Assembly: GCA_028278105.1 (NCBI GenBank)
Contig: JANQEX010000003.1
Span: forward strand, 6,972-70,971
DNA length: 64,000 nucleotides
From: Alphaproteobacteria bacterium
Lineage (GTDB): Bacteria > Pseudomonadota > Alphaproteobacteria > UBA9219 > RGZA01
Direction of reading: 5' to 3'
The notes under the pieces are model-generated. The model did no database searches, was not told where the DNA came from, and was given only the letters and a program-made list of their open reading frames with translations. Made by a program: the position numbers and the translations under genes. Below, piece by piece: positions 795 to 48,988 of the stretch (the first letter of the stretch is position 1; each line of letters starts with the position of its first letter).

Positions 795-859
795 CGCCCT
801 GAAACAGGCCGGGCAAGGCGGTGAAGTCCCCGGATGCCTTTGGCTTCGCGGGGCCGGCG

Positions 860-3628
860 TCAATTCGTCTTAACGCAAACAGCATGTACGGCAGTAGTAG
901 TAGCCACCGGGGAATAAGGGTCATAGGAAATACATCGCCATCCGTTATTGTAAGGTATGCTGGATATAATATGGCCATCGTAAGATACTGTCTCACAGCC
1001 GCCGGAAAGCACCGTGTAATTCACCGGACACTGAACGCTAACCATTTTTCCGCCAGCTTGCGTAATTGAGTTGTTCACAATCGTGGTCGTGAGGCCAAAG
1101 GCGGTTGCAGCCACCTTGCCTGCAACATCGAGCTTGGTTGCCGGACTCGTCGTCCCGATGCCGACATTGCCGGAGGGAGTGACGGCAAAGATATCGTTCC
1201 ACGCTGTTCCATTATAATAAGAAATTTCGAAATTATTCGCGCGAGTTCCCCAGCCGCTCGACCGTTTTGAAACGACCCAGATATTAGATGAATCTTCAAA
1301 AAAGCTGACCGCGCCTGTATTGAGCGTCCCGGAGGTATGCGGACTTTCAAGGCGCAATTCCGCGGACGCCGACGCATTATATATTTCCAGTGGAAATTCC
1401 GGGCTCGTTGTTCCGATGCCGACGTTGCCGTCGTGGTCGATGGTCATCCGCGCCAAATTGCTTGTTCCAAAATGCAGGGCGTCATTGTTCACGTTGACCA
1501 CCGCGGCTGAGTTGTCGGCGCCACTGGTCGAATGGTGATAACTGTCGTCAGAATTCCCGTCGCTGTTGGTCAGCAAAAGGCCCCAGCTTGTATTGGCGGC
1601 GTGCGCGATATTGACCTGGTTATAGATGGCACCCTTAATGCGCAGCACGTGGCCATGGCCCCCGCCGCCCACGTCAAGCAAAGCACCCGGCGTTGCCGTC
1701 CCGATGCCGATATTGCCGCCGGTGTAGTAGAGGGCGCTGCTGGCGCCGTCCTGCCACTGCGAGGAACCCGCCGCCGCGCCGTTTTCCCATGCGCCGCTGG
1801 AGGAATTATAGACCAGCGCCTCGCCGTCCGAGAGCGTGCCGAGCGACACGTCGGTCAGCCCGGCCAGCGTGCTTGAGCCGCCACCTCCGCCGCCGTCCCC
1901 GCTGCCGTTTATCAGGAAACCAGAGAACCTTGTGAATAGCGTTGTGCCGTGAATATTCAACCCGCCGGCATCATCTGCGAGAGCGTAAATTTCAATATAA
2001 TCGGTGCTGCCATTCATATCCAGCACCGCCGTCACGTTCGGTACGACCGTCGCGCTGTTTTGGTATCCACTCAAATATATAACGCCGTTTTTATATATCC
2101 TCAGAAAGCAAGCAGTGGCCGCATGCTCACAAAGCGCATTGGCGGTGACGAGGTACTTGCCGGCAACGGTTGGGGTAAAGCGACTGGTTGCCGTATCAAA
2201 GTTGTTGTTGGTGTCGTAATCCTCCGCAGGCCAGGTCACCTTTGTCTCGGTAAAATGGGGGATCGCCTGGCTGACGCCGTTCTTGTGGACCGAGAACGCG
2301 ACCTGGGTTCCGCTGCCCGGCCCGGCAGCCGTCCAGCCTGAGGCAGTCTTGACGTAGAGGGAATCCCGGTCGGTGTCATAGACCACAAGACCGGTGGCGG
2401 GCGAACTGATCGCCTCGCGCTGCACCGTGGTCATGCGCGGGGGGAGGAAGCCTTTGCTGGTGCTGGTCACGTCGAACAGCGCCGAGGCGGCGGGCGATGA
2501 CGTGCCAATCGCCACCGCCCCCGTGGTGTAATAAAGATCACTCCCCGACGCGCCCCATTGCGAGGAAGAGACGCTGGCCCATGTCTGGTCCCCCCGCAGA
2601 TAGGTGGAATTGTCCGCCGTGCCGCCGCCAAGCCGGGCAGTAGGCACCGTGCCGCTGGCGAGATTGCCGGCGTTCAGAGCCGTCAGCGACGCGCCGGAGC
2701 CTGAGAAAGCCATGGCCGTCACCGTACCGTTCACATCAAGCTTCGTGGCCGGACTCGCCGTTCCGATGCCGATGTTGCCGGAAGGAAGGACACTGAATAA
2801 ATCGCCATTCGACACGCCATATGTGCTGATTGCAAAAAGACTGGCCGTCTGTCCGTACGCGCTCCTGATCTGGAGCCCAACCTGGTCATTCGCAGGCATC
2901 AATGCCAATCCTGGCTGCGGACTCCATCCAGTAGAAAATTGGGCAACGTAAGATCCGCCCGTACTTCCGACCGCCACGTAAGGCCCGCCCTGGAGGCCAA
3001 TCCCCCCGCCCCCATAAGTTACTATCCTATATTTCGAAGCACCGGATTGAAGGCGAATGAGTTCGCCAAAATCTGAAGCAGCAACATGCAGGGGTGCAAC
3101 GGGAGTGCTCGTCCCGATCCCCACATTGCCGTTTGCATCCACCACGCCCAACACATTGCCCGAAGAGTCCCGCCACTCCTGCAAATTCCCCGTCTGGCTT
3201 GCCGCGCCCTTTACGACAAGGGGAGTGTCGGTCGCGGCCTGTGATATAAGCATCAGCAGGACGCCGGAGGTGGCATAGGTGGCGGCCACGGCACCACCAA
3301 GGCCTGTTCCGGTGTTATACTGCACCTGCCCGCTGGAGCCGCCGGCGCCGCTGACCGGCGCATCCTCGGTGCAGGTGATAATGGTACCATTGCTGGAGCA
3401 CCATTTGCCGTTCTCCAAGGTACCCACCTTGGGGTCCACCTCGGTGGCCGAGCCGGAAGCCGCCATGCTGATCCAGCTTGCGCCGTCGCAGAACTGCATC
3501 ACGCCGTGGTCGGCATTGTAGATTTGCTCGCCCTTAATGCCGGTGGGGTTCGCACAGCCCGCCCACAAGGGACCACCGGCCAGCAGCGCGGCGCAAAGGG
3601 CGGCAAGGAAGGCAAGGTCGCGCGTCAT
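860..3628 (-). CDS. secreted fibre-like repeat protein (tail-fibre/adhesin type, with internal C1q/TNF-like domain and Cys-rich C-terminus)
   Basis: Lies in a 950-aa ORF; the likely start is the ATG at 3628, giving MTRDLAFLAALCAALLAGGPLWAG-C, a signal peptide with an atypical lipobox. It has six GN(V/I)GIGTxxSP...L(D/H/E)(V/I) repeats. It also has YLRGDQTW and GFLPPRMTTVQREAI motifs typical of phage tail-fibre-like proteins, and a poly-Gly linker. GC is visibly lower than in the flanking bio genes. Confidence 0.75.
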   Translation of the reverse strand: MTRDLAFLAALCAALLAGGPLWAGCANPTGIKGEQIYNADHGVMQFCDGASWISMAASGSATEVDPKVGTLENGKWCSSNGTIITCTEDAPVSGAGGSSGQVQYNTGTGLGGAVAATYATSGVLLMLISQAATDTPLVVKGAASQTGNLQEWRDSSGNVLGVVDANGNVGIGTSTPVAPLHVAASDFGELIRLQSGASKYRIVTYGGGGIGLQGGPYVAVGSTGGSYVAQFSTGWSPQPGLALMPANDQVGLQIRSAYGQTASLFAISTYGVSNGDLFSVLPSGNIGIGTASPATKLDVNGTVTAMAFSGSGASLTALNAGNLASGTVPTARLGGGTADNSTYLRGDQTWASVSSSQWGASGSDLYYTTGAVAIGTSSPAASALFDVTSTSKGFLPPRMTTVQREAISSPATGLVVYDTDRDSLYVKTASGWTAAGPGSGTQVAFSVHKNGVSQAIPHFTETKVTWPAEDYDTNNNFDTATSRFTPTVAGKYLVTANALCEHAATACFLRIYKNGVIYLSGYQNSATVVPNVTAVLDMNGSTDYIEIYALADDAGGLNIHGTTLFTRFSGFLINGSGDGGGGGGSSTLAGLTDVSLGTLSDGEALVYNSSSGAWENGAAAGSSQWQDGASSALYYTGGNIGIGTATPGALLDVGGGGHGHVLRIKGAIYNQVNIAHAANTSWGLLLTNSDGNSDDSYHHSTSGADNSAAVVNVNNDALHFGTSNLARMTIDHDGNVGIGTTSPEFPLEIYNASASAELRLESPHTSGTLNTGAVSFFEDSSNIWVVSKRSSGWGTRANNFEISYYNGTAWNDIFAVTPSGNVGIGTTSPATKLDVAGKVAATAFGLTTTIVNNSITQAGGKMVSVQCPVNYTVLSGGCETVSYDGHIISSIPYNNGWRCISYDPYSPVATTTAVHAVCVKTN

Positions 3629-3885
3629 GGCTTGCCGGGCGCGGAAAAGAGGGACGGGATAATGGGATAAGGCTTGGGCTTCGCAGCACCCGTCACCACG
3701 CGGCCCTGACACCGCCGCCAGTCGGCGGGGTGATCCGGCGTTCCGGTGGCGCAGGGCGGCGCTTTTTCACGGGAGGCCTTCGCCAGATGAAAGGATTCCG
3801 GCCCGGCCAAGACGGCGGCAAGGACGGCCAAAACAGCCACTCCCGCGGCTGTACCCATGAGTGCAAGTGACCGGCGCGCGCCCAC
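3625..3885 (-). CDS. small single-pass membrane protein (86 aa), translationally coupled to the fibre-like gene
   Basis: GTG start at 3885 is preceded by GGGGGAG. A hydrophobic helix LMGTAAGVAVLAVLAAVLAG is present. Its TGA overlaps the ATG of the downstream gene (ATGA, 3625-3628). It sits directly behind leader RNA copy 3. Confidence 0.5.
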   Translation of the reverse strand: MGARRSLALMGTAAGVAVLAVLAAVLAGPESFHLAKASREKAPPCATGTPDHPADWRRCQGRVVTGAAKPKPYPIIPSLFSAPGKP

Positions 3886-4076
3886 GCTTAAACTCCCCCT
3901 GGTGGCTGGGAGTTCGAAAATCGTACACAGACGACTGCAGGGGCCTTTGGCCGTAAGGCTTGGACATGCGCCACTGCCTCCCAGCCCGACAGGCCGGAGG
4001 CAGCGTTCATCTCGGCAACGCTGACCGCTGTGTACGAGGTTTCGACACCCCGGAAATGGCCAGAACCATTTCCGCC
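3886..4076 (-). ncRNA. structured 5' leader RNA, unclassified family, copy 3
   Basis: Shares the conserved core ATGTCCAAGCCTTACGGCC and the same hairpin order as the other three copies, with compensatory arm changes. On the minus strand it is preceded by TTGACC (4108-4103), 17 nt, then CAGTAT (4085-4080). The terminal helix AACTCCC/GGGAGTT covers the SD of the 3885 ORF. Confidence 0.6.
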
Positions 4077-4311
4077 AAAATACTGCGGGATCAGCTTAAA
4101 AAGGTCAACAGCATTATGGTAATGTTCCGGCCTGGCTGGTATCACGCCCGCGCCCGGCTTCGCCAAGGCCATGCCGGGATAATATGCGGACATCCCATTG
4201 TGTTTCATCACATGGAATCTTCGCCGGAGTCCGTCCCCGTCCCGGTCCTCATGAAGACAGGCTCCGGCGGGCGCGGGAATGTTCGCAATATTTTGCCAGA
4301 CGGGCCGTTTC

Positions 4312-4947
4312 ATGACTCAACGCTTCATCATCACCGCCACCGGAACCGATATCGGCAAAACACTGATTGCCGCTGTTTTGATGCTGGGGCTCAAGGCCAG
4401 CTACTGGAAGCCGGTGCAATGCGGCACGGGCGGCACGGAAGGAGAAACGGACACGCAAACCCTGCGCCGCGTCACGGAACTGCCCGGTGAAAGATTTTTT
4501 CCTGAATCCTGCGTTTTCAGGAATGCGCTTTCGCCCCATCGGGCCGCCGAGCTTGAAGGACGCGAAATCGATCCTGAAAAAATCACCATGCCCGCATGCG
4601 ACGCGCCGTTGTTGATCGAAGGCGCGGGCGGATTGCTCGTGCCGCTTACGCGCAAATTTCTGCTGGTCGATCTTTTCGCAAAATGGCAAATCCCCGTTTT
4701 GCTTTGCGCCTCTACCGCGCTTGGCACCATCAACCATACCTTGCTTTCGGTCGAGGCGCTGAAAGCGCGCAAAATCCCGCTGCGCGGACTGATATTCACC
4801 GGCCCCGAAAACCCCGACAACATAAGGACCATATGCGAATTCTCCGGCGCGCGGGCTTTGGGATGCCTGCCCCCGCTGGAAGCGCCATCGCCCGCCCGTC
4901 TCTCCACGGCGTTCGACACATATTTCAACGCGGCGGATTTCGCATGA
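4312..4947 (+). CDS. bioD: dethiobiotin synthase
   Basis: N-terminus MTQRFIITATGTDIGKT (P-loop GTDxxxGKT) followed by WKPVQCG. The stop overlaps the bioA start (ATGA). Confidence 0.85.
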   Translation: MTQRFIITATGTDIGKTLIAAVLMLGLKASYWKPVQCGTGGTEGETDTQTLRRVTELPGERFFPESCVFRNALSPHRAAELEGREIDPEKITMPACDAPLLIEGAGGLLVPLTRKFLLVDLFAKWQIPVLLCASTALGTINHTLLSVEALKARKIPLRGLIFTGPENPDNIRTICEFSGARALGCLPPLEAPSPARLSTAFDTYFNAADFA

Positions 4948-6224
4948 CAGGCCACGCCTCCGCCCTTTGGCATCCCTTCACCCAACATGCGCGGACGGAC
5001 GCGCCGCTTTTTGTCGAACGGGCCGAAGGCGCCACGCTGCTCACGAAAGACGGGCGGCGGATCATCGACGGCATCTCGTCCTGGTGGGTGAATATTTATG
5101 GCCACAACCATCCTGCAATCGTGGAGGCGGTGAAGGCGCAGGCCGAAAAGCTGGACCAGGTGATTTTCGCGGGCTTCACCCATGCCCCGGCCGAAGAGCT
5201 GGCGGCAAGCCTGACCGCGCTCATGCCGCCCGCGCTTCATCATGTTTTCCTGTCCGACAGCGGCTCAACCGCCGTGGAAGTGGCCCTGAAAATGGCGCTG
5301 GGCGCGCATATCCACCGGGGCAAGCCGCGCCGCATGATCGCGGCGTTTCAGCACGGCTATCATGGCGACACCTTCGGCGCGATGGCGGCGGGCGCCCCTT
5401 CGGTATTCAACGAAATCTACGCGCCGTGGCTCTTCAGGGTAGAACGCCTGCCCTTTCCCGAAGCGGGGCGCGAAGAGCAAACCGTCGAAGCCTTCCGCAC
5501 CCTGCTGAAAGAACATGAAAACGATGTCGCCGCGTTGATCGTCGAACCATTGGTGCTGGGCGCGGGCGGCATGCGGATGTATTCCCCCACGGTTTTGCGG
5601 GATCTCAAGCGGCTTTGCGAAGCGCACGGGGTTTACCTGATCGCCGACGAGGTGATGACGGGCTTCGGCCGCACCGGCACGCTGCTGGCAAGCCAGCAGG
5701 CCGATATTGTTCCCGATATTCTATGCCTTTCAAAAGGACTGACGGGCGGCATGCTGCCGCTGGGCGCCACGCTGTGCGGCGATGATATTTACCAGGCTTT
5801 TTACTCATCCGACCGCAACAAAACCTTCTGGCATTCCTCATCCTATACCGGAAACCCGCTGTCCTGCGCCGCCGCCTGCGCCAGTTTAAAGCTATGGCAA
5901 ACGGATGAAACGCAAAAAAACATCGCGCGGCTTTGCAAGGCGCAGGAAGAACATCTGGGCGCAATCGCCGCGCATCCGCGGGCCGTAAATGCGCGGCACC
6001 GTGGCACTATCGCGGCGTTCGATCTTCGCGCGGAGGATGCCGGATATTTTTCGCGGATTGGCCCGAAACTCTATTCCTTTTTCCTCGCGCGCGGCGTTCT
6101 GCTGCGCCCGCTCGGCAACACGCTGTATGTCATGCCGCCTTACTGCATCGCGCCGGAGGCGTTGAACCGGATTTACGCCTGCCTGAAAGAGGCTCTGGAT
6201 TCCGTCGCGCAAGAGGAAAAATAA
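4944..6224 (+). CDS. bioA: adenosylmethionine-8-amino-7-oxononanoate aminotransferase
   Basis: Class-III aminotransferase motifs: WHPFTQ, SSWWVNIYGHNHP, DEVMTGFGRTG, LSKGLTGG (PLP lysine). The ATG at 4944 overlaps the bioD stop. Confidence 0.9.
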   Translation: MTGHASALWHPFTQHARTDAPLFVERAEGATLLTKDGRRIIDGISSWWVNIYGHNHPAIVEAVKAQAEKLDQVIFAGFTHAPAEELAASLTALMPPALHHVFLSDSGSTAVEVALKMALGAHIHRGKPRRMIAAFQHGYHGDTFGAMAAGAPSVFNEIYAPWLFRVERLPFPEAGREEQTVEAFRTLLKEHENDVAALIVEPLVLGAGGMRMYSPTVLRDLKRLCEAHGVYLIADEVMTGFGRTGTLLASQQADIVPDILCLSKGLTGGMLPLGATLCGDDIYQAFYSSDRNKTFWHSSSYTGNPLSCAAACASLKLWQTDETQKNIARLCKAQEEHLGAIAAHPRAVNARHRGTIAAFDLRAEDAGYFSRIGPKLYSFFLARGVLLRPLGNTLYVMPPYCIAPEALNRIYACLKEALDSVAQEEK

Positions 6225-6531
6225 ACCCTCCTTAACTGGCGCGCCTTGAAGGCGGAAAATCCGCGCCGATGGTCACGCCGAAAGATATGCACAAGGGATT
6301 TCCGCTCCGGCAAGCTGAAAAAGCTTATAATTTCAGCACTTTCGGACCACGCGGCGCGAAAAACATCTTGCGGCGGGGAACGGCTCTGTTAGGGTTGCGC
6401 ATCGGGCGGCTGCCTTGAACCCATTCTGGAAACAGGCGGCTCAGGTGAAGCCGGTTGCGTTTTACCCGCCTTTTGCTAGTGTTTTTCCCACCTGTCGAAT
6501 CAACTTTTAATACCAGGAAAGGTTCCAAGCC

Positions 6532-6831
6532 ATGGCTACTGCATCCCAACCCACCGTGACCCTGAAGCACATCGCGGCGGATCTCGCCGACAAGCACAAG
6601 CTTCCGAAAAAGCAAGCCACCCAGATGCTGGAAGACTTCGTGACTCATGTCGTCAAGAACCTGAAGAAAGGCAACCGCATCCGCATTGGCGGCCTTGGCA
6701 TCCTGCAGGTCCGCAAGCGCGCGGCGCGCATGGGCCGCAACCCCGCAACCGGCGAAACGATCCAGATTCCGGCCAAGAAGAAGATCGCCTTCCGCGCCGC
6801 GAAGGAACTCAAGGAAGCCGTGGGCAAATAA
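6532..6831 (+). CDS. HU/IHF-family DNA-binding protein
   Basis: 99 aa with IRIGGLGILQVRKRAARMGRNPATGETIQIPAKKKIAFRAAKELK, the typical HU beta-arm signature (RNPxTGE). Confidence 0.9.
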   Translation: MATASQPTVTLKHIAADLADKHKLPKKQATQMLEDFVTHVVKNLKKGNRIRIGGLGILQVRKRAARMGRNPATGETIQIPAKKKIAFRAAKELKEAVGK

Positions 6832-6868
6832 GCCCGGTTTTCCCGCCGGAATACGGCATCATTTCAAG

Positions 6869-6895
6869 GAGCGGCCTTCGGGCCGCTCTTTTTTT
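6869..6895 (+). terminator. rho-independent terminator downstream of the HU gene
   Basis: GAGCGGCC-TTCG-GGCCGCTC hairpin followed by a run of seven T. Confidence 0.65.
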
Positions 6896-6943: not shown

Positions 6944-6978
6944 TTCTGACTTCTGACTTCTGATATCTGATTTCTGAT
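6944..6978. repeat. 5 x 7-nt tandem repeat (TTCTGAC TTCTGAC TTCTGAT ATCTGAT TTCTGAT) abutting tRNA-Ser
   Basis: Read directly from the sequence. It ends 2 nt before the tRNA 5' end. Confidence 0.8.
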
Positions 6979-6980
6979 AT

Positions 6981-7070
6981 GGAGGGGTGGCAGAGTGGTC
7001 GATTGCGGCGGTCTCGAAAACCGTTATACCCGCGAGGGTATCGGAGGTTCGAATCCTCTCCCCTCCGCCA
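6981..7070 (+). tRNA. tRNA-Ser (anticodon CGA), CCA encoded
   Basis: Acceptor stem GGAGGGG/CCCCTCC, anticodon loop CT-CGA-AA, long variable arm, T-loop GGTTCGAATCC, 3' GCCA. Confidence 0.9.
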
Positions 7071-7700: not shown

Positions 7701-7767
7701 TGCGGCCTTGTTCTTCAGGCATTTTCCTCCGTTCATTGACAGCTTGCGGCAGGACTGCCAATCTGAT

Positions 7768-7989
7768 GCCAGAAGATCACTGGATCTTTCGGGGTATAGT
7801 TACCTCTCGATTAGCGGAACGAGCGTTGCCGACACAAACGCTGCCTCCGGCCTTATGGCTGGGAGGCAGTGGCGTATGTCCAAAGCCTCGCGGCTGAAAG
7901 GCCATTGCAATCGTCTAATCGCGATTAACTAACTCCCAGTCACCAAAAAGCATGCCGGCGCGCGGCATGCCCATCAATGGGAGGGCATC
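7768..7989 (+). ncRNA. structured 5' leader RNA, unclassified family, copy 1
   Basis: Preceded by TTGACA (7735-7740), 17 nt, then CAATCT (7758-7763). The hairpin series and conserved core ATGTCCAAAGCCTCGCGGC are present. Anti-SD CTCCC pairs with SD GGGAG just upstream of the ATG at 7990. Confidence 0.6.
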
Positions 7990-8151
7990 ATGGACTGGAT
8001 AGACGTCGTTCTGCGGCTGTTAAGCTGGCAAAACTTCCTTATCATAATCATCACCACATGGGGCTATAATTTCCATCTCCGCATTCTGGAAATCCAGAAA
8101 CAACATCGGGAAGTCATTGCCCTGTTGCAGGAAATTTCGGCGAAGACATAA
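7990..8151 (+). CDS. 53-aa hydrophobic membrane peptide (MDWIDVVLRLLSWQNFLIIIITTWGYNFHLRILEIQKQHREVIALLQEISAKT)
   Basis: ATG is preceded by GGGAGGG. There is one predicted TM helix. A near-identical paralogue lies 549 bp downstream. It is below the 60-aa cutoff of the ORF track. Confidence 0.55.
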   Translation: MDWIDVVLRLLSWQNFLIIIITTWGYNFHLRILEIQKQHREVIALLQEISAKT

Positions 8152-8321
8152 AATTCGCCGTCTTCTTCGCGCATCGCTTAACCTGCGGCCATCTGAAGCT
8201 CGACCCACTCCCCGATCAGGCCCTTTCCATATCCCCAATGTACGTATCTTGTGCGGCTTTGTTCCTTGAGCCTTTTTTTCTCCGTTCATTGACAGTTTGC
8301 GGCAAGACTGCCAATCTGATG

Positions 8322-8538
8322 CCGGAAGATCACTTGATCTTCCGGGGTGTAGTTACCTCGCAGTTACCGGAACGAGCGTTGCCGACACAAACGCTGCCTC
8401 TGGCCCTATGGCTGGGAGGCAGTGGCGTATGTCCAAGCCTCACGGCCAAAGGCCCCTGCAATCGTGTAACTGCGATTAACTAACTCCCAGTCACCAAAAA
8501 GCATGCCGGCGCGGCATGCCCATCAATGGGAGGGCATC
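8322..8538 (+). ncRNA. structured 5' leader RNA, unclassified family, copy 2
   Basis: Preceded by TTGACA (8289-8294), 17 nt, then CAATCT (8312-8317). Helices: GGAAGATC/GATCTTCC (8324-8343), GCGTT/AACGC (8376-8394), CTGCCTC/GAGGCAG (8394-8422), AATCG/CGATT (8460-8477), GCATGCC/GGCATGC (8501-8519), and anti-SD CTCCC (8484-8488) with SD GGGAG (8528-8532). Confidence 0.6.
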
Positions 8539-8700
8539 ATGGACTGGATAGACGTCGTTCTGCGGCTGTTAAGCTGGCAAAACTTTCTTATCATAATCAT
8601 CACCACATGGGGCTATAATTTCCATCTCCGCATTCTGGAAATCCAGAAACAACATCGGGAAGTCATTGCCCTGTTGCGGGAAATTTCGGCGAAGACATAA
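8539..8700 (+). CDS. 53-aa hydrophobic membrane peptide, paralogue of 7990-8151 (one Q/R difference)
   Basis: Lies within the track ORF 8503-8700. The ATG at 8539 has a GGGAGGG SD. It differs from copy 1 at only 2 nt over 162 nt. Confidence 0.55.
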   Translation: MDWIDVVLRLLSWQNFLIIIITTWGYNFHLRILEIQKQHREVIALLREISAKT

Positions 8701-8875
8701 AAAACGCGCCAATCCGGGCCGAACGCCAAGCGCAAAAGCCGTGAAAATCGCCTCGCGCGCCAATAAAGCCGGAAGCCAAAGACCAGGCGCGAGACCGTTC
8801 CGCGCATGGCTGCGGGCTGGAAATTCAGATGCTCTGCGGTTATGCCCGGTACAGGCGGCAGGCCGTCCCCGCCCT

Positions 8876-10585
8876 TTAGGCCACCTTGACGGCGGGAGCC
8901 GCGCGGCGGGCTTCTTCCTCGATCAAATAGCGGCGGGACAGCTTGCCGATGGCCGTTTTGGGCAAGGAGTCGCGGAATTCCACCTGTTTGGGAATTTCAT
9001 GCGCGCCGAGCCTGTCTTTTAGAAAGCCGCGCAATTCCAGCCCGGTGAGCGCCGCGCCCGGCCTCAGCCTGACATAGGCCTTCACGATCTGGCCGCGCGT
9101 GGCGCTGTCCACCCCCGCCACCACGCATTCCTCGACGGCGGGATGGGTATAGATGGCCTCTTCCACATGGCGCGGGTAAATTTTCATGCCGCCCATCATG
9201 ATCATGTCCTTGATGCGGTCGACAATGCGGATATAGCCGTCTTCGTCGCGCACACCCACATCGCCGGTATGAAGGCGCCGCGCGCCGTCCGGCATTTTTT
9301 CCAGCACGCCCGCGGTATCCAGCGGGCGGTTCCAGTAGCCCATCATCACCTGCGGGCCGCGAATGCACACCTCACCCATCTCGCCCGCGCCAAGCGCCGA
9401 GGTTTCATCCTCCAGCGACACGATGTCCAGCGTCGTGCCAATCATCGGCAGGCCGATGGTCCCTTCCTTCTGCGGCGCGCCGATGGGGTTGCAGGTGGCC
9501 ACCGCCGAGCATTCGGTCAGTCCGTAGCCCTCGGCCACCACGCAGCCGGTCAGCCGCTCGAATGTGCGTTTCACCTCCACGGGCAGGGGCGCGCCGCCGG
9601 AGATGCAATAATCGATGGACGACAGGTCATATTCCTGCGCCGACTTCGACTGGTTGATCGCGGCGAAAATGGACGGCACCGCCGGAAACAGCGTGGGCCG
9701 CTTGTTATGGATGTGGCGGATAAGGTCCATCACCTCGAAGCGGGGCAATAGGATGATGGTTCCCATCATGGCGGTGGTGACGTTCAGCACCACCGTCAGC
9801 GCGAAAACATGGGTCAGCGGCAGCACGCCCATCATCCGCACCGCGCCCATCTCAAGCGTCGGGAAAATGCCCCGGCCCTGCAGCGCGTTGGCGGCAAGAT
9901 TGGCGTGGCTCAGCATCGCCCCCTTGGGAACGCCGGTCGTGCCGCCGGTGTATTGCAACACGGCGACGTCTTCCACAGGATCGATGACGGCGCGCTGATA
10001 AGCGCCGTCATTGTCCAGAAGCCTGCCAAAAGACATGTAGACGTCATCCCGCGGCATGGACACGGCCGATTTCGCATCCAGAACCCCGCGCAACAGGCTT
10101 TTCCAGCCGGGCAGCATCTCGCCGAGCTGGCAAAAAATAACGGCGCGAAGCTCTGTTCCCGTCCGCGCCTTTTCGAATTTTTCGAAAAGCGCGGGGTGGT
10201 CGAGCGTGGCCATGACGCGGACGCCGGAATCCTGCATCTGCTGGGCGATTTCGCGCTCGGCGTAAAGCGGGTTGAAATTGACGACGGTCGCGCCGATCTT
10301 CAGCGCCGCCAGATAAAGAATGATGTAATGCGGCGTGTTGGGGAGAAGCAGGCCGACACGGTCGCCCTTCTTCACGTCCAGATCCTGAAGCCCGCGCGCC
10401 GCGCGGGCCACCAGTTTCGCAACCTCGGCATAGCTGAAATGGCGGTCCAGAAAATCGATGAAGCAATGATGCGGCAGGACCGCCACCGCCTCGTCGAACA
10501 AGCTGTCGGCCGGGCGCGGCGCAAGAAGCCGGGCAATATCGGCCTCGGATTCAGGACGTGTTATGATTTGCGGGGAAGTTGTCAT
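8876..10585 (-). CDS. AMP-dependent acyl-CoA synthetase/ligase (long-chain fatty-acid-CoA ligase-like)
   Basis: AMP-binding motif YTGGTTGVPKGAMLSH, GYGLTE, DGYIRIVDRIKDMI. The ATG at 10585 (MTTSPQ) is preferred over the upstream alternative. Confidence 0.85.
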   Translation of the reverse strand: MTTSPQIITRPESEADIARLLAPRPADSLFDEAVAVLPHHCFIDFLDRHFSYAEVAKLVARAARGLQDLDVKKGDRVGLLLPNTPHYIILYLAALKIGATVVNFNPLYAEREIAQQMQDSGVRVMATLDHPALFEKFEKARTGTELRAVIFCQLGEMLPGWKSLLRGVLDAKSAVSMPRDDVYMSFGRLLDNDGAYQRAVIDPVEDVAVLQYTGGTTGVPKGAMLSHANLAANALQGRGIFPTLEMGAVRMMGVLPLTHVFALTVVLNVTTAMMGTIILLPRFEVMDLIRHIHNKRPTLFPAVPSIFAAINQSKSAQEYDLSSIDYCISGGAPLPVEVKRTFERLTGCVVAEGYGLTECSAVATCNPIGAPQKEGTIGLPMIGTTLDIVSLEDETSALGAGEMGEVCIRGPQVMMGYWNRPLDTAGVLEKMPDGARRLHTGDVGVRDEDGYIRIVDRIKDMIMMGGMKIYPRHVEEAIYTHPAVEECVVAGVDSATRGQIVKAYVRLRPGAALTGLELRGFLKDRLGAHEIPKQVEFRDSLPKTAIGKLSRRYLIEEEARRAAPAVKVA

Positions 10586-10780
10586 CGGCTGCCTTTTCGC
10601 GGGGCGAGTGTGGCAAATCCGGTGATCGAAAATCAAGCTTTGGATAATCCTGATCATCCCCATGAAATATTATAAAATACTCAAAATGGCCACTAATTAT
10701 GACAGAAACGGTTGCACGTTTTTTACGACGTGCGAAAGCACACGCAAACAACGTCAACCGGACGGTCAATTGTCGAAGGG

Positions 10781-11710
10781 TCAGATTTTTTCGATCAGTT
10801 CAGGCACGGCCTGGAACAGGTCGCCCACAAGCCCGTAATCGGCCACCTGAAAAATGGGAGCGTCGGGATCCTTGTTGATGGCGACGATGACCTTGCTGTC
10901 CTTCATGCCCGCCACATGCTGAATCGCGCCGGAGAGGCCCACGGCGATATACAGGGCCGGGGCCACCACCTTGCCCGTCTGGCCGATCTGGCAGTGATTG
11001 GGAACGTAATTGGCATCCACCGCCGCGCGCGAGGCGCCCACCGCGCCGCCCAGCTTGTCGGCCAGTTTTTCCAGCATCTTGAAATTGTCGGCCGACGCCA
11101 GGCCGCGCCCGCCGGCCACCACCACGCGGGCCGCCGTCAGTTCGGGCCGCTCGGACTTGGCGATCTCGCTCCCGGCGTATTTGGAAAGGCCCGCATCGGG
11201 CGTCGCCTCAAGCTTTTCAACCGCGCCCGCGCCGCCGGTCGTGGCCGCGGCCTCGAACGCCGTGCCGCGCACCGTGCAAAGCTTGATGGCGTCAGCGGAT
11301 TGAACGGTGGCAATGGCGTTGCCCGCATAGATGGGGCGGCGGAAGGTGTCGGCGCTTTCCACGGCGATGATGTCGGAGATGGGCGCAACGTCCAGCAGCG
11401 CCGCCGCGCGCGGCAGCAGATTGCGGCCAAAGGTGGTGGCGGGCGCAAAGACGTGGGTATAGTTCTTCGCAACCTGCGCGACCAGCGGCGCAAGATTCTC
11501 CGCGAGATTGCCCGCGAAATGCGGCGCGCTGGCGCAAAGCGCCTTTTCGACGCCCGCGACCTGCGCGGCGCTGGCGACCACGGCCTCCGCCGCCTCGCCC
11601 ATCACCAGGGCATCGACCGGCGCGCCGGTCCTGGCCGCGGCGGTCACGGCGCTGAGGCTGGCGGGGATGATGGCTTTTCCATCATGTTCGATCATAACAA
11701 GGGCGCGCAT
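10781..11710 (-). CDS. etfA: electron transfer flavoprotein subunit alpha
   Basis: 309 aa. The C-terminal FAD-binding region is GGRGL...LADKLGGAVGASRAAVD...QIGQTGKVVAPALYIAVGLSGAIQH. Confidence 0.9.
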   Translation of the reverse strand: MRALVMIEHDGKAIIPASLSAVTAAARTGAPVDALVMGEAAEAVVASAAQVAGVEKALCASAPHFAGNLAENLAPLVAQVAKNYTHVFAPATTFGRNLLPRAAALLDVAPISDIIAVESADTFRRPIYAGNAIATVQSADAIKLCTVRGTAFEAAATTGGAGAVEKLEATPDAGLSKYAGSEIAKSERPELTAARVVVAGGRGLASADNFKMLEKLADKLGGAVGASRAAVDANYVPNHCQIGQTGKVVAPALYIAVGLSGAIQHVAGMKDSKVIVAINKDPDAPIFQVADYGLVGDLFQAVPELIEKI

Positions 11711-23263: not shown

Positions 23264-23445
23264 TCTCAACCTCCCCGGTGGGTGAACCGGAGGTTAAGAA
23301 CCGCGTAGACGCGGCCAGCAGCTTTTGGCCGTGAGGCTTGGACATGACTGCCGCCTCCGGCCCCCAGGCACGGACAGGCGGCATCTTGACAGTGATGCCT
23401 ACTGGTCTACGGAGGTTCTTAAGCCTCAAAGCGCATGTTTGTATG
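23264..23445 (-). ncRNA. structured 5' leader RNA, unclassified family, copy 4 (5' boundary uncertain)
   Basis: The conserved core ATGTCCAAGCCTCACGGCC is present. Helices are GGCATC/GATGCC, GCCGCCT/AGGCGGC, GGCCA/TGGCC and CCGCG/CGCGG. The anti-SD/SD helix is AACCTCC/GGAGGTT. Confidence 0.5.
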
Positions 23446-47593: not shown

Positions 47594-48988
47594 ATGAACA
47601 AGGCTACCGCGAAACCTTTCCGCCTCGCCGAGCTTTTCCGCCGGCTGCGTTTCGACCTCGCCTTTTTCCACTGGTTGAAACATTACCTGCCGCGCGGGCT
47701 TTACGGGCGGGCGCTGCTGATCCTCGTGACGCCGGTGATTCTGGCCCAGGCCGTCGCCACCTATGTGTTCTATGAACGCCACTGGCAAACCGTCACCAAC
47801 CGGCTGACCCATGCGCTGGCGGGCGAGATCGGCGTGGCCGCCACGCGCATGAGCGAGGGCGATCCCGCGCAAATGGCCGAAAGCCTGCGCGCGGCGCTGG
47901 CGCAAAAGCTGGATATCGACATTCTTTATGATCCCGGCAAGACGCTGGCCGGGTATCCGGCGCGCGGCGATTACACCACGCTTCTGGCCCGCATGCTGCA
48001 CAAGGGACTTGATGAAAAGCTCGAACGCCCCTACTCGCTCGACCTGCGGCATGCCAGGGAATGGATCGCCGTGCATGTGCAGCTTGAGCCCGGCGTAATG
48101 ACCATTATTTTCCCGGAGCGCCGCGTTTACACGCCGACCGCCACCATTTTCGTGATCTGGATGATCGGCAGCTCGGCGCTTTTGTCGTTGATCGCCATTC
48201 TTTTCATGCGCAAACAGATCCGCCCCATCCGCCGGCTGGCGGACGCCGCCGAACGCATCGGCCGCGGCGAGGATGTGCCGCATTTCCGCCCCGAAGGGGC
48301 CCGCGAGGTGCGGCAGGCCGCCGTGAACCTGATTATCATGCGCGACCGCCTGCGCCGCCAGATTGCCCAGCGCACCGGCATGCTGAACGGCGTGTCGCAT
48401 GATCTGCGCACGCCGCTCACCCGCATGAAGCTGCAACTGGCCCTCATGCCGGAAACCGCCGAAATCGCCGGCCTCAAGGCCGATGTGCGCGACATGACCG
48501 AGATGATCGAGGCATACCTGTCTTTCGCGCGCGGCGAAGACCCGGAAGACGTGGCCCCCACCCGCCTGTCCGTCTTGCTGGAAGCGGCGGTGGATTCGGC
48601 GCGGCGGCTGCATCCTTCGGTGCCTTTTTATCTGGAAAAAGGCGGCGACGCGGTCATACGCCTTCGCCCCAAGGCCATGGGCCGGGCTCTCGGCAATGTG
48701 ATCGGAAACGCCGCGCGCTACGGCAATTCGGTGTGGATTTCCGTAAGGCCGGGCCAGAAATTCATCGACATCATTGTCGATGACGACGGCCCCGGAGTCC
48801 CTCCCGAAAAGCGCGAGGATGTGTTCCGGCCTTTCATGCGCCTGGAGGAATCGCGCAACCTGGAAACGGGCGGCGTGGGGCTTGGCATGACCATCGCCCG
48901 CGATATTCTGCGTCATCATGGCGGCGACGCGCTGCTGGAAAACAGTCCCCGCGGCGGCCTTCGCGTTGTTTTTCACCTTCCCTTGTAA
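47594..48988 (+). CDS. EnvZ-type sensor histidine kinase
   Basis: Two TM segments, a HAMP domain, H-box VSHDLRTPLTRM, N-box and G-box (DDDGPGV, GGVGLGMTIA). Confidence 0.88.
   Translation: MNKATAKPFRLAELFRRLRFDLAFFHWLKHYLPRGLYGRALLILVTPVILAQAVATYVFYERHWQTVTNRLTHALAGEIGVAATRMSEGDPAQMAESLRAALAQKLDIDILYDPGKTLAGYPARGDYTTLLARMLHKGLDEKLERPYSLDLRHAREWIAVHVQLEPGVMTIIFPERRVYTPTATIFVIWMIGSSALLSLIAILFMRKQIRPIRRLADAAERIGRGEDVPHFRPEGAREVRQAAVNLIIMRDRLRRQIAQRTGMLNGVSHDLRTPLTRMKLQLALMPETAEIAGLKADVRDMTEMIEAYLSFARGEDPEDVAPTRLSVLLEAAVDSARRLHPSVPFYLEKGGDAVIRLRPKAMGRALGNVIGNAARYGNSVWISVRPGQKFIDIIVDDDGPGVPPEKREDVFRPFMRLEESRNLETGGVGLGMTIARDILRHHGGDALLENSPRGGLRVVFHLPL

Follow-up and report, generated by a model that had tools for sequence, protein, structure and literature searches.

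A widespread, mainly alphaproteobacterial leader RNA family with two mutually exclusive folds and a likeness to phage C4 and sRNA-Xcc1 RNAs

RNAs of the sRNA-Xcc1 family are found in Xanthomonas integron cassettes, in Stx and other lambdoid phages, in Xylella islands and on a Kingella plasmid. Individual sites lie upstream of the symE toxin gene in Xanthomonas integron cassettes (bioRxiv 10.1101/2025.06.18.660453), upstream of an ORF6N gene in the APSE phage (bioRxiv 10.1101/2020.03.17.996009) and, as five tandem copies, in a Xylella island (PMC12189769). The C4 RNA of phages P1 and P7 is cut by RNase P from a longer transcript, and its a' and b' loops mask a ribosome-binding site (RBS) (PMC5320573, PMC4825925); seqA and seqC sites flank the CI RNA of phage P4, and inactive and active structures of the isrK messenger RNA (mRNA) interchange by way of long-range pairing (PMC4825925). 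The element compared with these RNAs here is a structured RNA present in four copies within a stretch of 64,000 nucleotides (nt), hereafter the window, which comprises positions 6,972 to 70,971 of the forward strand of contig JANQEX010000003.1 (GenBank assembly GCA_028278105.1) from an alphaproteobacterium of the RGZA01 lineage. Its family is, as judged from sequence and architecture, a distant chromosomal relative of the phage C4 and sRNA-Xcc1 RNAs and not a wholly new kind of RNA, and each copy is probably the 5' leader of an mRNA, acting in cis as a two-state switch and belonging to a large, mainly alphaproteobacterial family. To our knowledge there is no earlier report of C4/Xcc1-type RNAs in Alphaproteobacteria.

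The four copies had been recognised in an initial annotation, made from the letters of the window, as an unclassified structured leader. A covariance model built from the family (R1), whose E-values are rough, was searched against the window, the homologous loci and the IMG/VR contigs, and in the window it gives exactly four strong matches (92.6-143.7 bits), at these same four places. A fifth copy at 48608-48744 was considered and rejected, the match there (the next best, at 8.9 bits and E = 1.9) being attributable to chance. The 26-nt core ATGTCCAAGCCTCACGGCCAAAGGCC occurs three times in the window at no more than two mismatches, with none expected, and in an alignment of the four copies the core of copy 1 departs from it by two 1-nt insertions; in a shuffle test of folding all four copies are the more stable, with z between -2.8 and -5.2. 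A scan of genomes, one per species, with the pattern ATGTCCAAGCCTNNCGGC returned at least 116 loci, of which at least about 48 have YAAAG after the core and complementary sequence on either side. R1 confirms at least 47 members outside the window, at 86-159 bits, and three further members on IMG/VR contigs, the covariance-model search having found at least about 50 additional members. A plasmid collection searched with copy 2 gave no match, and this, together with the mere three matches in IMG/VR, argues that the family is not mainly phage- or plasmid-borne.

The carriers among the matches listed are mostly Alphaproteobacteria, namely Micavibrio, Micavibrionaceae, Rhodospirillales, Rhodospirillaceae, Hyphomicrobium, metagenome-assembled genomes (MAGs) labelled Bradyrhizobium and Afipia, and two cultured Rhodopseudomonas, Rhodopseudomonas pentothenatexigens JA575 and Rhodopseudomonas sp. 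NSM (loci L079 and L082). A few carrier MAGs bear other labels (Bdellovibrionales, Planctomycetota, Verrucomicrobiales, Acidobacterium), which may be binning artefacts. At gathering score Rfam 15 has no match in the window or in 18 homologous loci, and a full-text literature search for the core sequence and for papers on riboswitch candidates returned nothing relevant. The four repeats are true copies of a widespread, unannotated and mainly alphaproteobacterial RNA family.

Base pairs were counted in a structure-blind MAFFT alignment of 46 members (A2) under two structure sets, and over all helices the level of pairing lies between 84 and 100%. The hairpins that the initial annotation had called H1, H2, H3 and H5, here P0, b, P3 and P5, are, like the anti-SD/SD pairings, all in the sequence and covary across the 46 homologues: helix b, which reads GCGUU/AACGC or GGCAUC/GAUGCC in the window, is 92% paired and shows as many as four pair types at a position; P3 (CUGCCUCC/GGAGGCAG) is 84-89% paired, mostly as C or U facing G, and is rich in G-U; P5, exemplified by AAUCG/CGAUU, is 93% paired, with three to six pair types; and P0 is a hairpin of variable sequence found at the same position in the homologues. 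The core had been read as single-stranded, which does not hold, because P4, a covarying helix of 8 base pairs (bp) that is 97% paired, closes the stretch and makes it an internal loop. This loop, GU-AUGUCCAA-[GCC-UYRC-GGC]-YAAAG, measures 23-25 nt, and its bracketed segment is an invariant 3-bp mini-hairpin.

The local chain of hairpins first proposed is one real fold of the RNA, but it is only one of two exclusive folds, and the outer stem P3' and the long-range helices P1b and P2 had been missed. The outer stem P3' pairs GGCYGGGAG with CUCCCRGYC over 9 bp and is 96% paired, with covariation such as C-G 33 / U-A 10 at one position. P1b, of 7 bp, forms between the linker J, which lies 3' of P5, and the loop of the GGGG...CCYC hairpin (H_A), and P2, of 8 bp, joins the a1 strand after H_A to the loop of P5, with four to six pair types per position. 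In whole-structure tests of both structure sets none of 500 shuffles attains the values observed, and the covariation signal collapses once the 3' partner is shifted by 1-3 columns. An alignment-free duplex test of P2 gives -10.07 kcal/mol for cognate against -2.69 kcal/mol for non-cognate strands (standard deviation 2.1), the cognate partner being best or tied in 40 of 45 members; the corresponding values for P1b are -3.24 and -0.28 kcal/mol, and swapped controls are flat. The covariation extends to helices that exclude one another, that is, H_A versus P1, P5 versus P2 and P3 versus P3', and in one member (L101) compensatory changes in P3' (C-G to G-C, G-C to A-U) keep P3' perfect and break P3.

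The helices sort into a module fold, consisting of H_A, b, P3', P4 and P5, and a clamped fold, consisting of P1, P2, P3 and P4, and their mutual exclusivity is a matter of shared nucleotides. P2 takes up all 8 nt of the P5 loop and extends into the start of the P5 3' strand, and since no linker is left between the 3' strands of P2 and P5 the two cannot coexist; a pseudoknot containing both is ruled out on these geometric grounds. P3 and P3' draw on a single strand, GGCYGGGAG, and the lower part of P3 competes in addition with P4 and b. The GGGG segment may pair with the local CCYC, as H_A, or with the distant CUCC, as P1a, and this CUCC is also part of P3', while H_A and P1b are sterically possible together. 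Because both sides of the P3'/H3 and P2/H5 competitions covary, the RNA can be regarded as bistable. With helices forced, the clamped fold is predicted to be the more stable in 39 of 45 members (mean 6.75 kcal/mol), the two folds being nearly isoenergetic in copy 1 (module -60.1, clamped -59.5 kcal/mol) and copy 2 (-58.5 and -58.2 kcal/mol) and standing at -59.6 and -65.4 kcal/mol in copy 3 and at -50.0 and -64.5 kcal/mol in copy 4.

The P3' 3' strand also overlaps the sequence 3' of the module. A hairpin with the 5' arm GGYCRCCAG comes next in most of 47 members, this arm being made up of the final 4-5 nt of P3' and the conserved tail, and in 19 of the 47 a U-tract comes after the hairpin and gives it the look of a terminator. 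In the window copies and in L079, L082, L107 and L002, a Shine-Dalgarno (SD) sequence stands directly after the module and can pair with (AA)CUCCC, as it does in the minimum-free-energy folds of the SD-type copies 3 and 4. The sequestration of the SD by an anti-SD, as initially proposed, is thus present in the window copies, but it is one of several expression platforms in the family. Because the hairpin arm or the anti-SD overlaps P3', as the sequence itself shows, the P3' 3' strand is common to the module and to the terminator base or SD mask.

The promoters suggested for copies 1 to 3 stand in part, the TTGACA or TTGACC boxes at -35 and the 17-nt spacers being present, whereas CAATCT and CAGTAT make weak -10 hexamers and a standard consensus promoter scan calls no site at the window copies. 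About 25 of 48 members have a TTGA(C/T)N box 54-62 nt 5' of the module, a conserved position that fits a transcription start just before P0. On the 3' side a co-oriented open reading frame (ORF) with an SD begins within about 130 nt of the core in most members read. Its products are heterogeneous and include single-helix membrane proteins of 43-65 amino acids (aa), as after window copies 1, 2 and 4 and in L014, L044 and L067; proteins of 90-340 aa with a signal peptide, lipoproteins among them; and a few cytoplasmic-looking proteins, one with a weak match to the NERD nuclease. A Pfam search of the downstream proteins assigned almost no family, and the 53-aa ORF after copy 1 has no Pfam or PHROG match.

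The second gene of the operon behind copy 3 encodes a 950-aa protein that matches the tail fiber PHROG 9942 (E = 1.2e-19) and, weakly, C1q. Other tail-fibre-like downstream products occur at L048, more weakly at L064, and as a 764-aa protein (8515-10809) after the L119 element. The 86-aa product of the first gene behind copy 3 has a homologue 3' of the Rhodopseudomonas element L079 (BLASTP E = 3e-10), and the DNA of the 950-aa gene resembles regions downstream of L079 and L107; the leader and its gene pair for the 86-aa and tail-fibre-like proteins recur in Rhodopseudomonas (L079) and in L107. The 53-aa and 43-aa products have a single transmembrane helix followed by H-x-E-(I/V)-x-A-L-L, and they may form a small membrane-protein family, the similarity of the motif being weak (BLASTP E = 0.008 over 11 residues).

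The initial annotation could match the motif to no family it knew, which is right as far as Rfam gathering scores go, but misses both a similarity to sRNA-Xcc1 and an end-to-end alignment to a Stx-phage locus. The similarity to sRNA-Xcc1 (RF02221) is the sole one in Rfam: at relaxed thresholds copy 1 scores 27.9 bits and the member L010 scores 30.6 bits, both members so tested matching below the gathering score of 53 bits. In the Stx phage P13374 (L118), an Xcc1 element at 1486-1569 (79.6 bits) lies just upstream of an antitermination-protein gene, and within the region 463-1650 isrK (463-538) and C4 (563-650) are situated further upstream. The family model aligns over its full length to positions 1403-1566 of this locus (24.6 bits, E = 2.6e-6). 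In the upstream part of the alignment the loop CUCAAAA of an H_A-like hairpin pairs with the linker UUUUGAG, and a strand, GCAAGUAG-CGG, pairs with the second-hairpin loop CUACUUGC; a second copy of both partner sites (AUCAAAA...UCAAGUAGGA) lies on the RBS of the downstream antitermination gene. The segment 1403-1485, about 80 nt 5' of the Rfam Xcc1 match, is a conserved partner domain outside the Rfam model. In the region 1291-1580 of the Kingella potus plasmid (L117) an Xcc1 element of 56.4 bits is found 37 nt 5' of a KilA-N gene, and there UUUACAAAG occurs both upstream, where CGG follows it, and at the RBS, each occurrence being complementary to the second-hairpin loop.

The likeness to Xcc1 extends to the order of elements, which is a 9-bp G-rich outer stem, hairpin 1, hairpin 2, a linker, the 3' strand and a CACC tail. 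In both, the internal loop of hairpin 1 is composed of 8 nt, a 3-bp mini-hairpin with a tetraloop, and 4-5 nt; the loop of the second hairpin contains GUCU; the loop of an upstream H_A pairs with J, and an a1-AGCGG strand with the second-hairpin loop; and the element occurs in tandem and directly upstream of a co-oriented gene. The complementarity of the hairpin-2 loop and linker to an upstream a1/b1, which characterises this class of RNA, is borne out for the family by the duplex test and by covariation. The two nevertheless differ in the sequence of the invariant loop (AUGUCCAAGCC... versus AUACAAUACCC...). Moreover, the phage and Kingella loci have a2/b2 sites at the downstream RBS and the alphaproteobacterial family has none. 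In the family no terminator separates the 5' domain from the module to which it is joined, and this domain contributes P3, which pairs against the module 5' strand. The outer stem's own 3' strand serves as anti-SD or terminator base, the family is hosted by Alphaproteobacteria, and the genes that it precedes are chromosomal and encode exported proteins.

The a1/b1 - a'/b' - a2/b2 layout of the L118 phage locus matches that of C4 of P1 and P7 and the seqA and seqC sites of P4. With C4 the family has in common a long outer stem around two hairpins, with a linker and a CACC tail after them, and a variable loop and linker (a', b') that set specificity, with complementary a1/b1 upstream in the same transcript. 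RNase P frees C4 from its leader transcript by reading an acceptor-like stem plus RCCA (PMC5320573, PMC4825925, PMC11143913), and the family, which has the sequence prerequisites, is a candidate for such cleavage. In contrast to C4, the first hairpin of the family is much larger and bears the invariant loop, and the family has no downstream target site and lies outside a phage immunity operon. The 5' domain recalls IsrK (RF01394, from the isrK-orf45-anrP mRNA of Salmonella Gifsy-1), both in its long-range pairing with a downstream region of the same mRNA and in its layout of hairpin, single-stranded address and hairpin, and in the Stx phage isrK lies directly upstream of C4. The isrK model has no match on the window copies. 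No terminator ends the 5' domain of the family, unlike that of IsrK, so that no separate short isoform is predicted.

The best-supported account is that a cis-acting two-state leader of the C4/CI/Xcc1 and IsrK kind was domesticated on alphaproteobacterial chromosomes in front of genes for exported or tail-fibre-like proteins. The 3' half has the build of a C4/Xcc1-type module, with the outer stem P3', a stacked P4, the invariant loop, P5, the linker J and an RCCA tail. The 5' half, an IsrK-like domain, comprises H_A, the a/b hairpins and the strands a1 and P3, and it is complementary to the module segment by segment (GGGG:CUCC, H_A loop:J, a1:P5 loop), the P3 strand pairing with the 5' strand of P3'/P4. 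In the module fold the 3' strand of P3' would be held, permitting read-through and translation (ON), and in the clamped fold or an all-hairpin fold this strand would be free for termination or for masking of the SD (OFF). By analogy with C4, the module fold may be an RNase P-like substrate in which a G at +1 opens the long stem and RCCA follows it; a cut there would strip away the clamp and so fix the leader in its module fold. The RCCA tail is present in 42 of 48 members, with a G-C as the first pair of P3', U or G at -1 and G at +1, and RNase P RNA is known to contact RCCA (PMC11143913). The direction of the switch, its trigger and its processing by RNase P are what we infer, whereas the family, its helices, their mutual exclusivity and the overlap with the terminator or SD are shown.

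A number of results weigh against the switch as set out here. The relation to Xcc1 falls short of the Rfam cut-off (28-31 versus 53 bits), and the C4 model (RF01695), which as a positive control scores 77.4 bits in the Stx phage, has no match at E <= 10 in copies 1 and 2 or at E <= 1 in L010. The downstream a2/b2 target is absent: in a duplex test over 220 nt of downstream sequence the cognate value is -8.24 kcal/mol and the non-cognate -8.05 kcal/mol, the cognate is the best in none of 46 members, and the a1 strand does not recur downstream. In most members RCCA sits within the 5' arm of the downstream hairpin, and being buried there it would need another rearrangement before RNase P could gain access. 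The nearest-neighbour energies given for the two folds leave out pseudoknots and tertiary contacts. The accessibility of the SD in the folding ensemble, compared for the full leader, for the leader minus its 5' domain and with P3' forced, shows no consistent difference, and because it fails to separate the states the ON/OFF direction is not established by computation. The pairing GGGG:CUCC in the clamped fold would likewise free the SD, and the assignment of ON and OFF in the SD-type members follows from the stronger CUCCC:SD hairpin in the minimum-free-energy folds. Finally, many of the taxon labels are those of MAG bins, whose taxonomy is uncertain.

Copies 1 and 2 are tandem units that are 91.5% identical, and their differences cluster in P2, with 7 of 16 columns changed there versus 13 of 167 elsewhere (Fisher p = 4e-4); three P2 pairs are changed on both sides with pairing kept. 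A divergence concentrated in P2 is to be expected if each copy must recognise only its own partner, and the heteroimmunity of P1 and P7 offers a parallel for such copy-specific recognition (PMC5320573). Intermolecular as well as intramolecular P2 pairing is possible; a1-like sites in the 64-kb window are confined to the copies themselves and chance near-matches. A bolder and, on balance, unlikely elaboration is that of a self-addressed switch gated by RNase P, in which the private address a1/b1:a'/b' would clamp a tRNA-like module, cleavage would commit the mRNA irreversibly to expression, and the freed pieces would act only on transcripts of their own locus, as short IsrK does. Were this true, each copy would possess an insulated feedback loop, and the logic of a phage immunity RNA would have become chromosomal and host-domesticated for exported and tail-fibre-like proteins across the Alphaproteobacteria.

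The same divergence of P2 can be read differently, since compensated changes between copies 1 and 2 resemble selection for distinct specificities (PMC5320573) such as would suit a trans-acting, processed antisense small RNA, a true equivalent of C4 or Xcc1, cut out or terminated so as to stand alone, whose P5 loop and J pair with unlinked or sibling transcripts and whose position upstream of an ORF is secondary. The architecture and RCCA tail match C4 and Xcc1, and an intrinsic-terminator-like hairpin stands before the ORF in 19 of 47 members. Such a role is nonetheless improbable, as the downstream RBS holds no cognate target, the rest of the window has no convincing a1-like sites, the variable loops covary with partners in their own leader, the co-oriented ORF with its SD keeps close to the core in most members read, and the window copies are without a terminator between module and ORF. 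It is distinctly improbable that the element is a riboswitch, in which a small molecule or ion, bound by the P4 loop together with the P3'/P4/P5 junction, would favour the module fold over the clamped one. The downstream ORFans are heterogeneous and none is metabolic or a transporter, so that nothing points to a ligand; the architecture is common with that of phage antisense RNAs that need neither protein nor ligand; and copy-specific address helices are not a riboswitch feature. These points stand against a conserved and covarying aptamer-like region with alternative platforms, namely an invariant loop of 23-25 nt inside covarying helices, two exclusive folds, and terminator and SD-masking platforms in one family, which is a classic riboswitch signature.

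Another reading makes the element the leader of a type I toxin-antitoxin locus, whose structured 5' untranslated region would, as in hok or aapA1, block a small hydrophobic toxin until processing. The ORFs of 43-53 aa with one transmembrane helix in the window, two of them in tandem, an SD that can be sequestered and the long-range 5'-3' pairing of the leader would be in keeping with such a system, as would the location of Xcc1 in Xanthomonas upstream of the symE toxin gene (bioRxiv 10.1101/2025.06.18.660453). An ORF of less than about 60 aa, though, is present only at copies 1, 2 and 4 and at a few homologues, most homologues preceding 90-340-aa signal-peptide or lipobox proteins or tail-fibre-like proteins, and consensus scans over the four copies, which are weak instruments, detected no antisense gene, promoter or terminator; a toxin-antitoxin leader is highly unlikely. 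Attenuation by a leader peptide, in which the AUG of the core would open a translated mini-ORF (MSKPxG...) whose translation sets the fold, is hardly credible, despite the AUG standing 8-10 nt 3' of a GGAGG-like motif in 41 of 46 members and the six-codon ORF found in 16 of them. Both the GGAGG and the AUG lie within covarying helices or a closed loop. The peptide was rejected as a candidate also in view of its sequence: the 18-nt core is invariant at all codon positions and only the UYRC tetraloop "codon" varies, the MSKPxG frame is 6 codons long in 16 of 46 members but extends over 12 to more than 29 in the rest, copy 1 carries a frameshift, and four members carry a hairpin of 25-30 nt inserted between GGAGG and AUG. 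The initial description of the region as a structured 5' leader and not a protein is upheld by this behaviour of the core codons, frame lengths and inserted hairpins, together with the strong covariation.

The positions of the segments in the four window copies are collected in the table. Copies 1 and 2 are flanked by the gene for tRNA-Ser(CGA) (6981-7070) and by a convergent acyl-CoA synthetase gene (8876-10663). With a tRNA gene next to it and its units duplicated in tandem, this place may be a hot spot for insertion. A strong terminator-like hairpin (6866-6891) lies directly before tRNA-Ser(CGA), and another terminator-like hairpin (8255-8272) lies between the copy 1 and copy 2 units.

Table. 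Segments, signals and genes of the four copies, in window coordinates; module segments are taken from alignment A4, and copies on the minus strand are given in transcript order where two ends are stated in descending sequence.
Feature	Copy 1 (+)	Copy 2 (+)	Copy 3 (-)	Copy 4 (-)
Match to R1	7790-7946 (129.9 bits)	8343-8497 (137.8 bits)	3899-4052 (143.7 bits)	23279-23428 (92.6 bits)
Promoter-like site	TTGACA 7736-7741, 17-nt spacer, CAATCT 7759-7764 (read from sequence)	TTGACA 8289-8294, 17-nt spacer, CAATCT 8312-8317	TTGACC 4108-4103, 17-nt spacer, CAGTAT 4085-4080	
P0 (5' hairpin)	7770-7790	8322-8345 (CCGGAAGAUC-ACUU-GAUCUUCCGG)		
H_A	7791-7806	8344-8359	4051-4036	23427-23412 (GAGG/CCUC)
a1 strand (P2 5')	7807-7814	8360-8367	4035-4028	23411-23405
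a/b hairpins	7815-7842	8368-8395	4027-4002	23404-23380
P3 5' strand	7843-7852	8396-8406	4001-3991	
P3'a	7857-7865	8410-8418	3986-3978	23363-23355
P4 5' strand	7866-7873	8419-8426	3977-3970	23354-23347
Core loop	7874-7900	8427-8451	3969-3945	23346-23323
P4 3' strand	7901-7908	8452-8459	3944-3937	23322-23315
P5	7909-7926	8460-8477	3936-3919	23314-23299
J	7927-7933	8478-8484	3918-3912	23298-23292
P3'b	7934-7941 (CUCCCAGUC)	8485-8492	3911-3904	23291-23284
Tail	ACCAA 7942-7946	ACCAA 8493-8497	ACCAG 3903-3899	ACCCA 23283-23279
Expression platform	7947-7989, hairpin GCAUGCCG/CGGCAUGC ~7950-7970	8498-8538, hairpin and SD		
SD	GGGAGGG 7979-7985, can pair with CUCCCA of P3'b	GGGAGGG 8528-8534	GGGGGAG 3899-3893, paired with AACUCCC of J/P3'b in minimum-free-energy fold	GGGGAGG 23276-23270
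Start codon			GUG 3885-3883	AUG 23263-23261
Downstream ORF	7990-8151, 53 aa, one predicted transmembrane helix	8539-8700, 53 aa, paralogue of copy 1 ORF	3625-3885, 86 aa, exported small protein	to 23132, 43 aa, transmembrane
Second gene of operon			860-3712, 950-aa tail-fibre-like protein	

Some homologous loci show further variation. L050 holds a tandem pair of family members on the minus strand (1502-1653 and 1754-1906), the distance between their starts being about 250 nt; the upstream member, whose core has diverged to AAGCCCUCCAGCC, escaped the exact-pattern scan and is counted among the members confirmed by R1. On the IMG/VR contig L120 (1-6981) the element (2168-2324, minus strand) adjoins a primase/helicase-like gene (3812-5083), beside which lies a gene for a large serine integrase (5104-6891), so that at least some copies of the family ride on integrative elements. 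The MAG loci L095 (1-134) and L093 (3731-3890) agree in the element's 3' half and in the lipoprotein gene that comes after it, whereas the L095 sequence 5' of the core is unrelated to that of L093, and L095 is either a natural variant without the 5' domain or an assembly break. In L013, from an Acidobacteriota MAG, a weak R1 match (849-978, plus strand; 27.8 bits, E = 5e-4) has the core AUGUCCAAGCCUCUCGGCUAGAA and a P4-like helix and may be a distant relative outside the Alphaproteobacteria.

The finding adds a large and well-supported RNA family to the Alphaproteobacteria, including the cultivable Rhodopseudomonas and the predatory Micavibrio, and it suggests that the Rfam model of Xcc1 covers only the 3' half of a two-domain element. 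As both of the exclusive folds are kept by compensatory changes, the family offers a clean natural model for RNA bistability, and the tandem paralogues with their re-coded address helices lend themselves to a direct test of RNA orthogonality. The family also connects the logic of phage immunity RNAs with the control of chromosomal genes for small envelope proteins and tail-fibre-like proteins.

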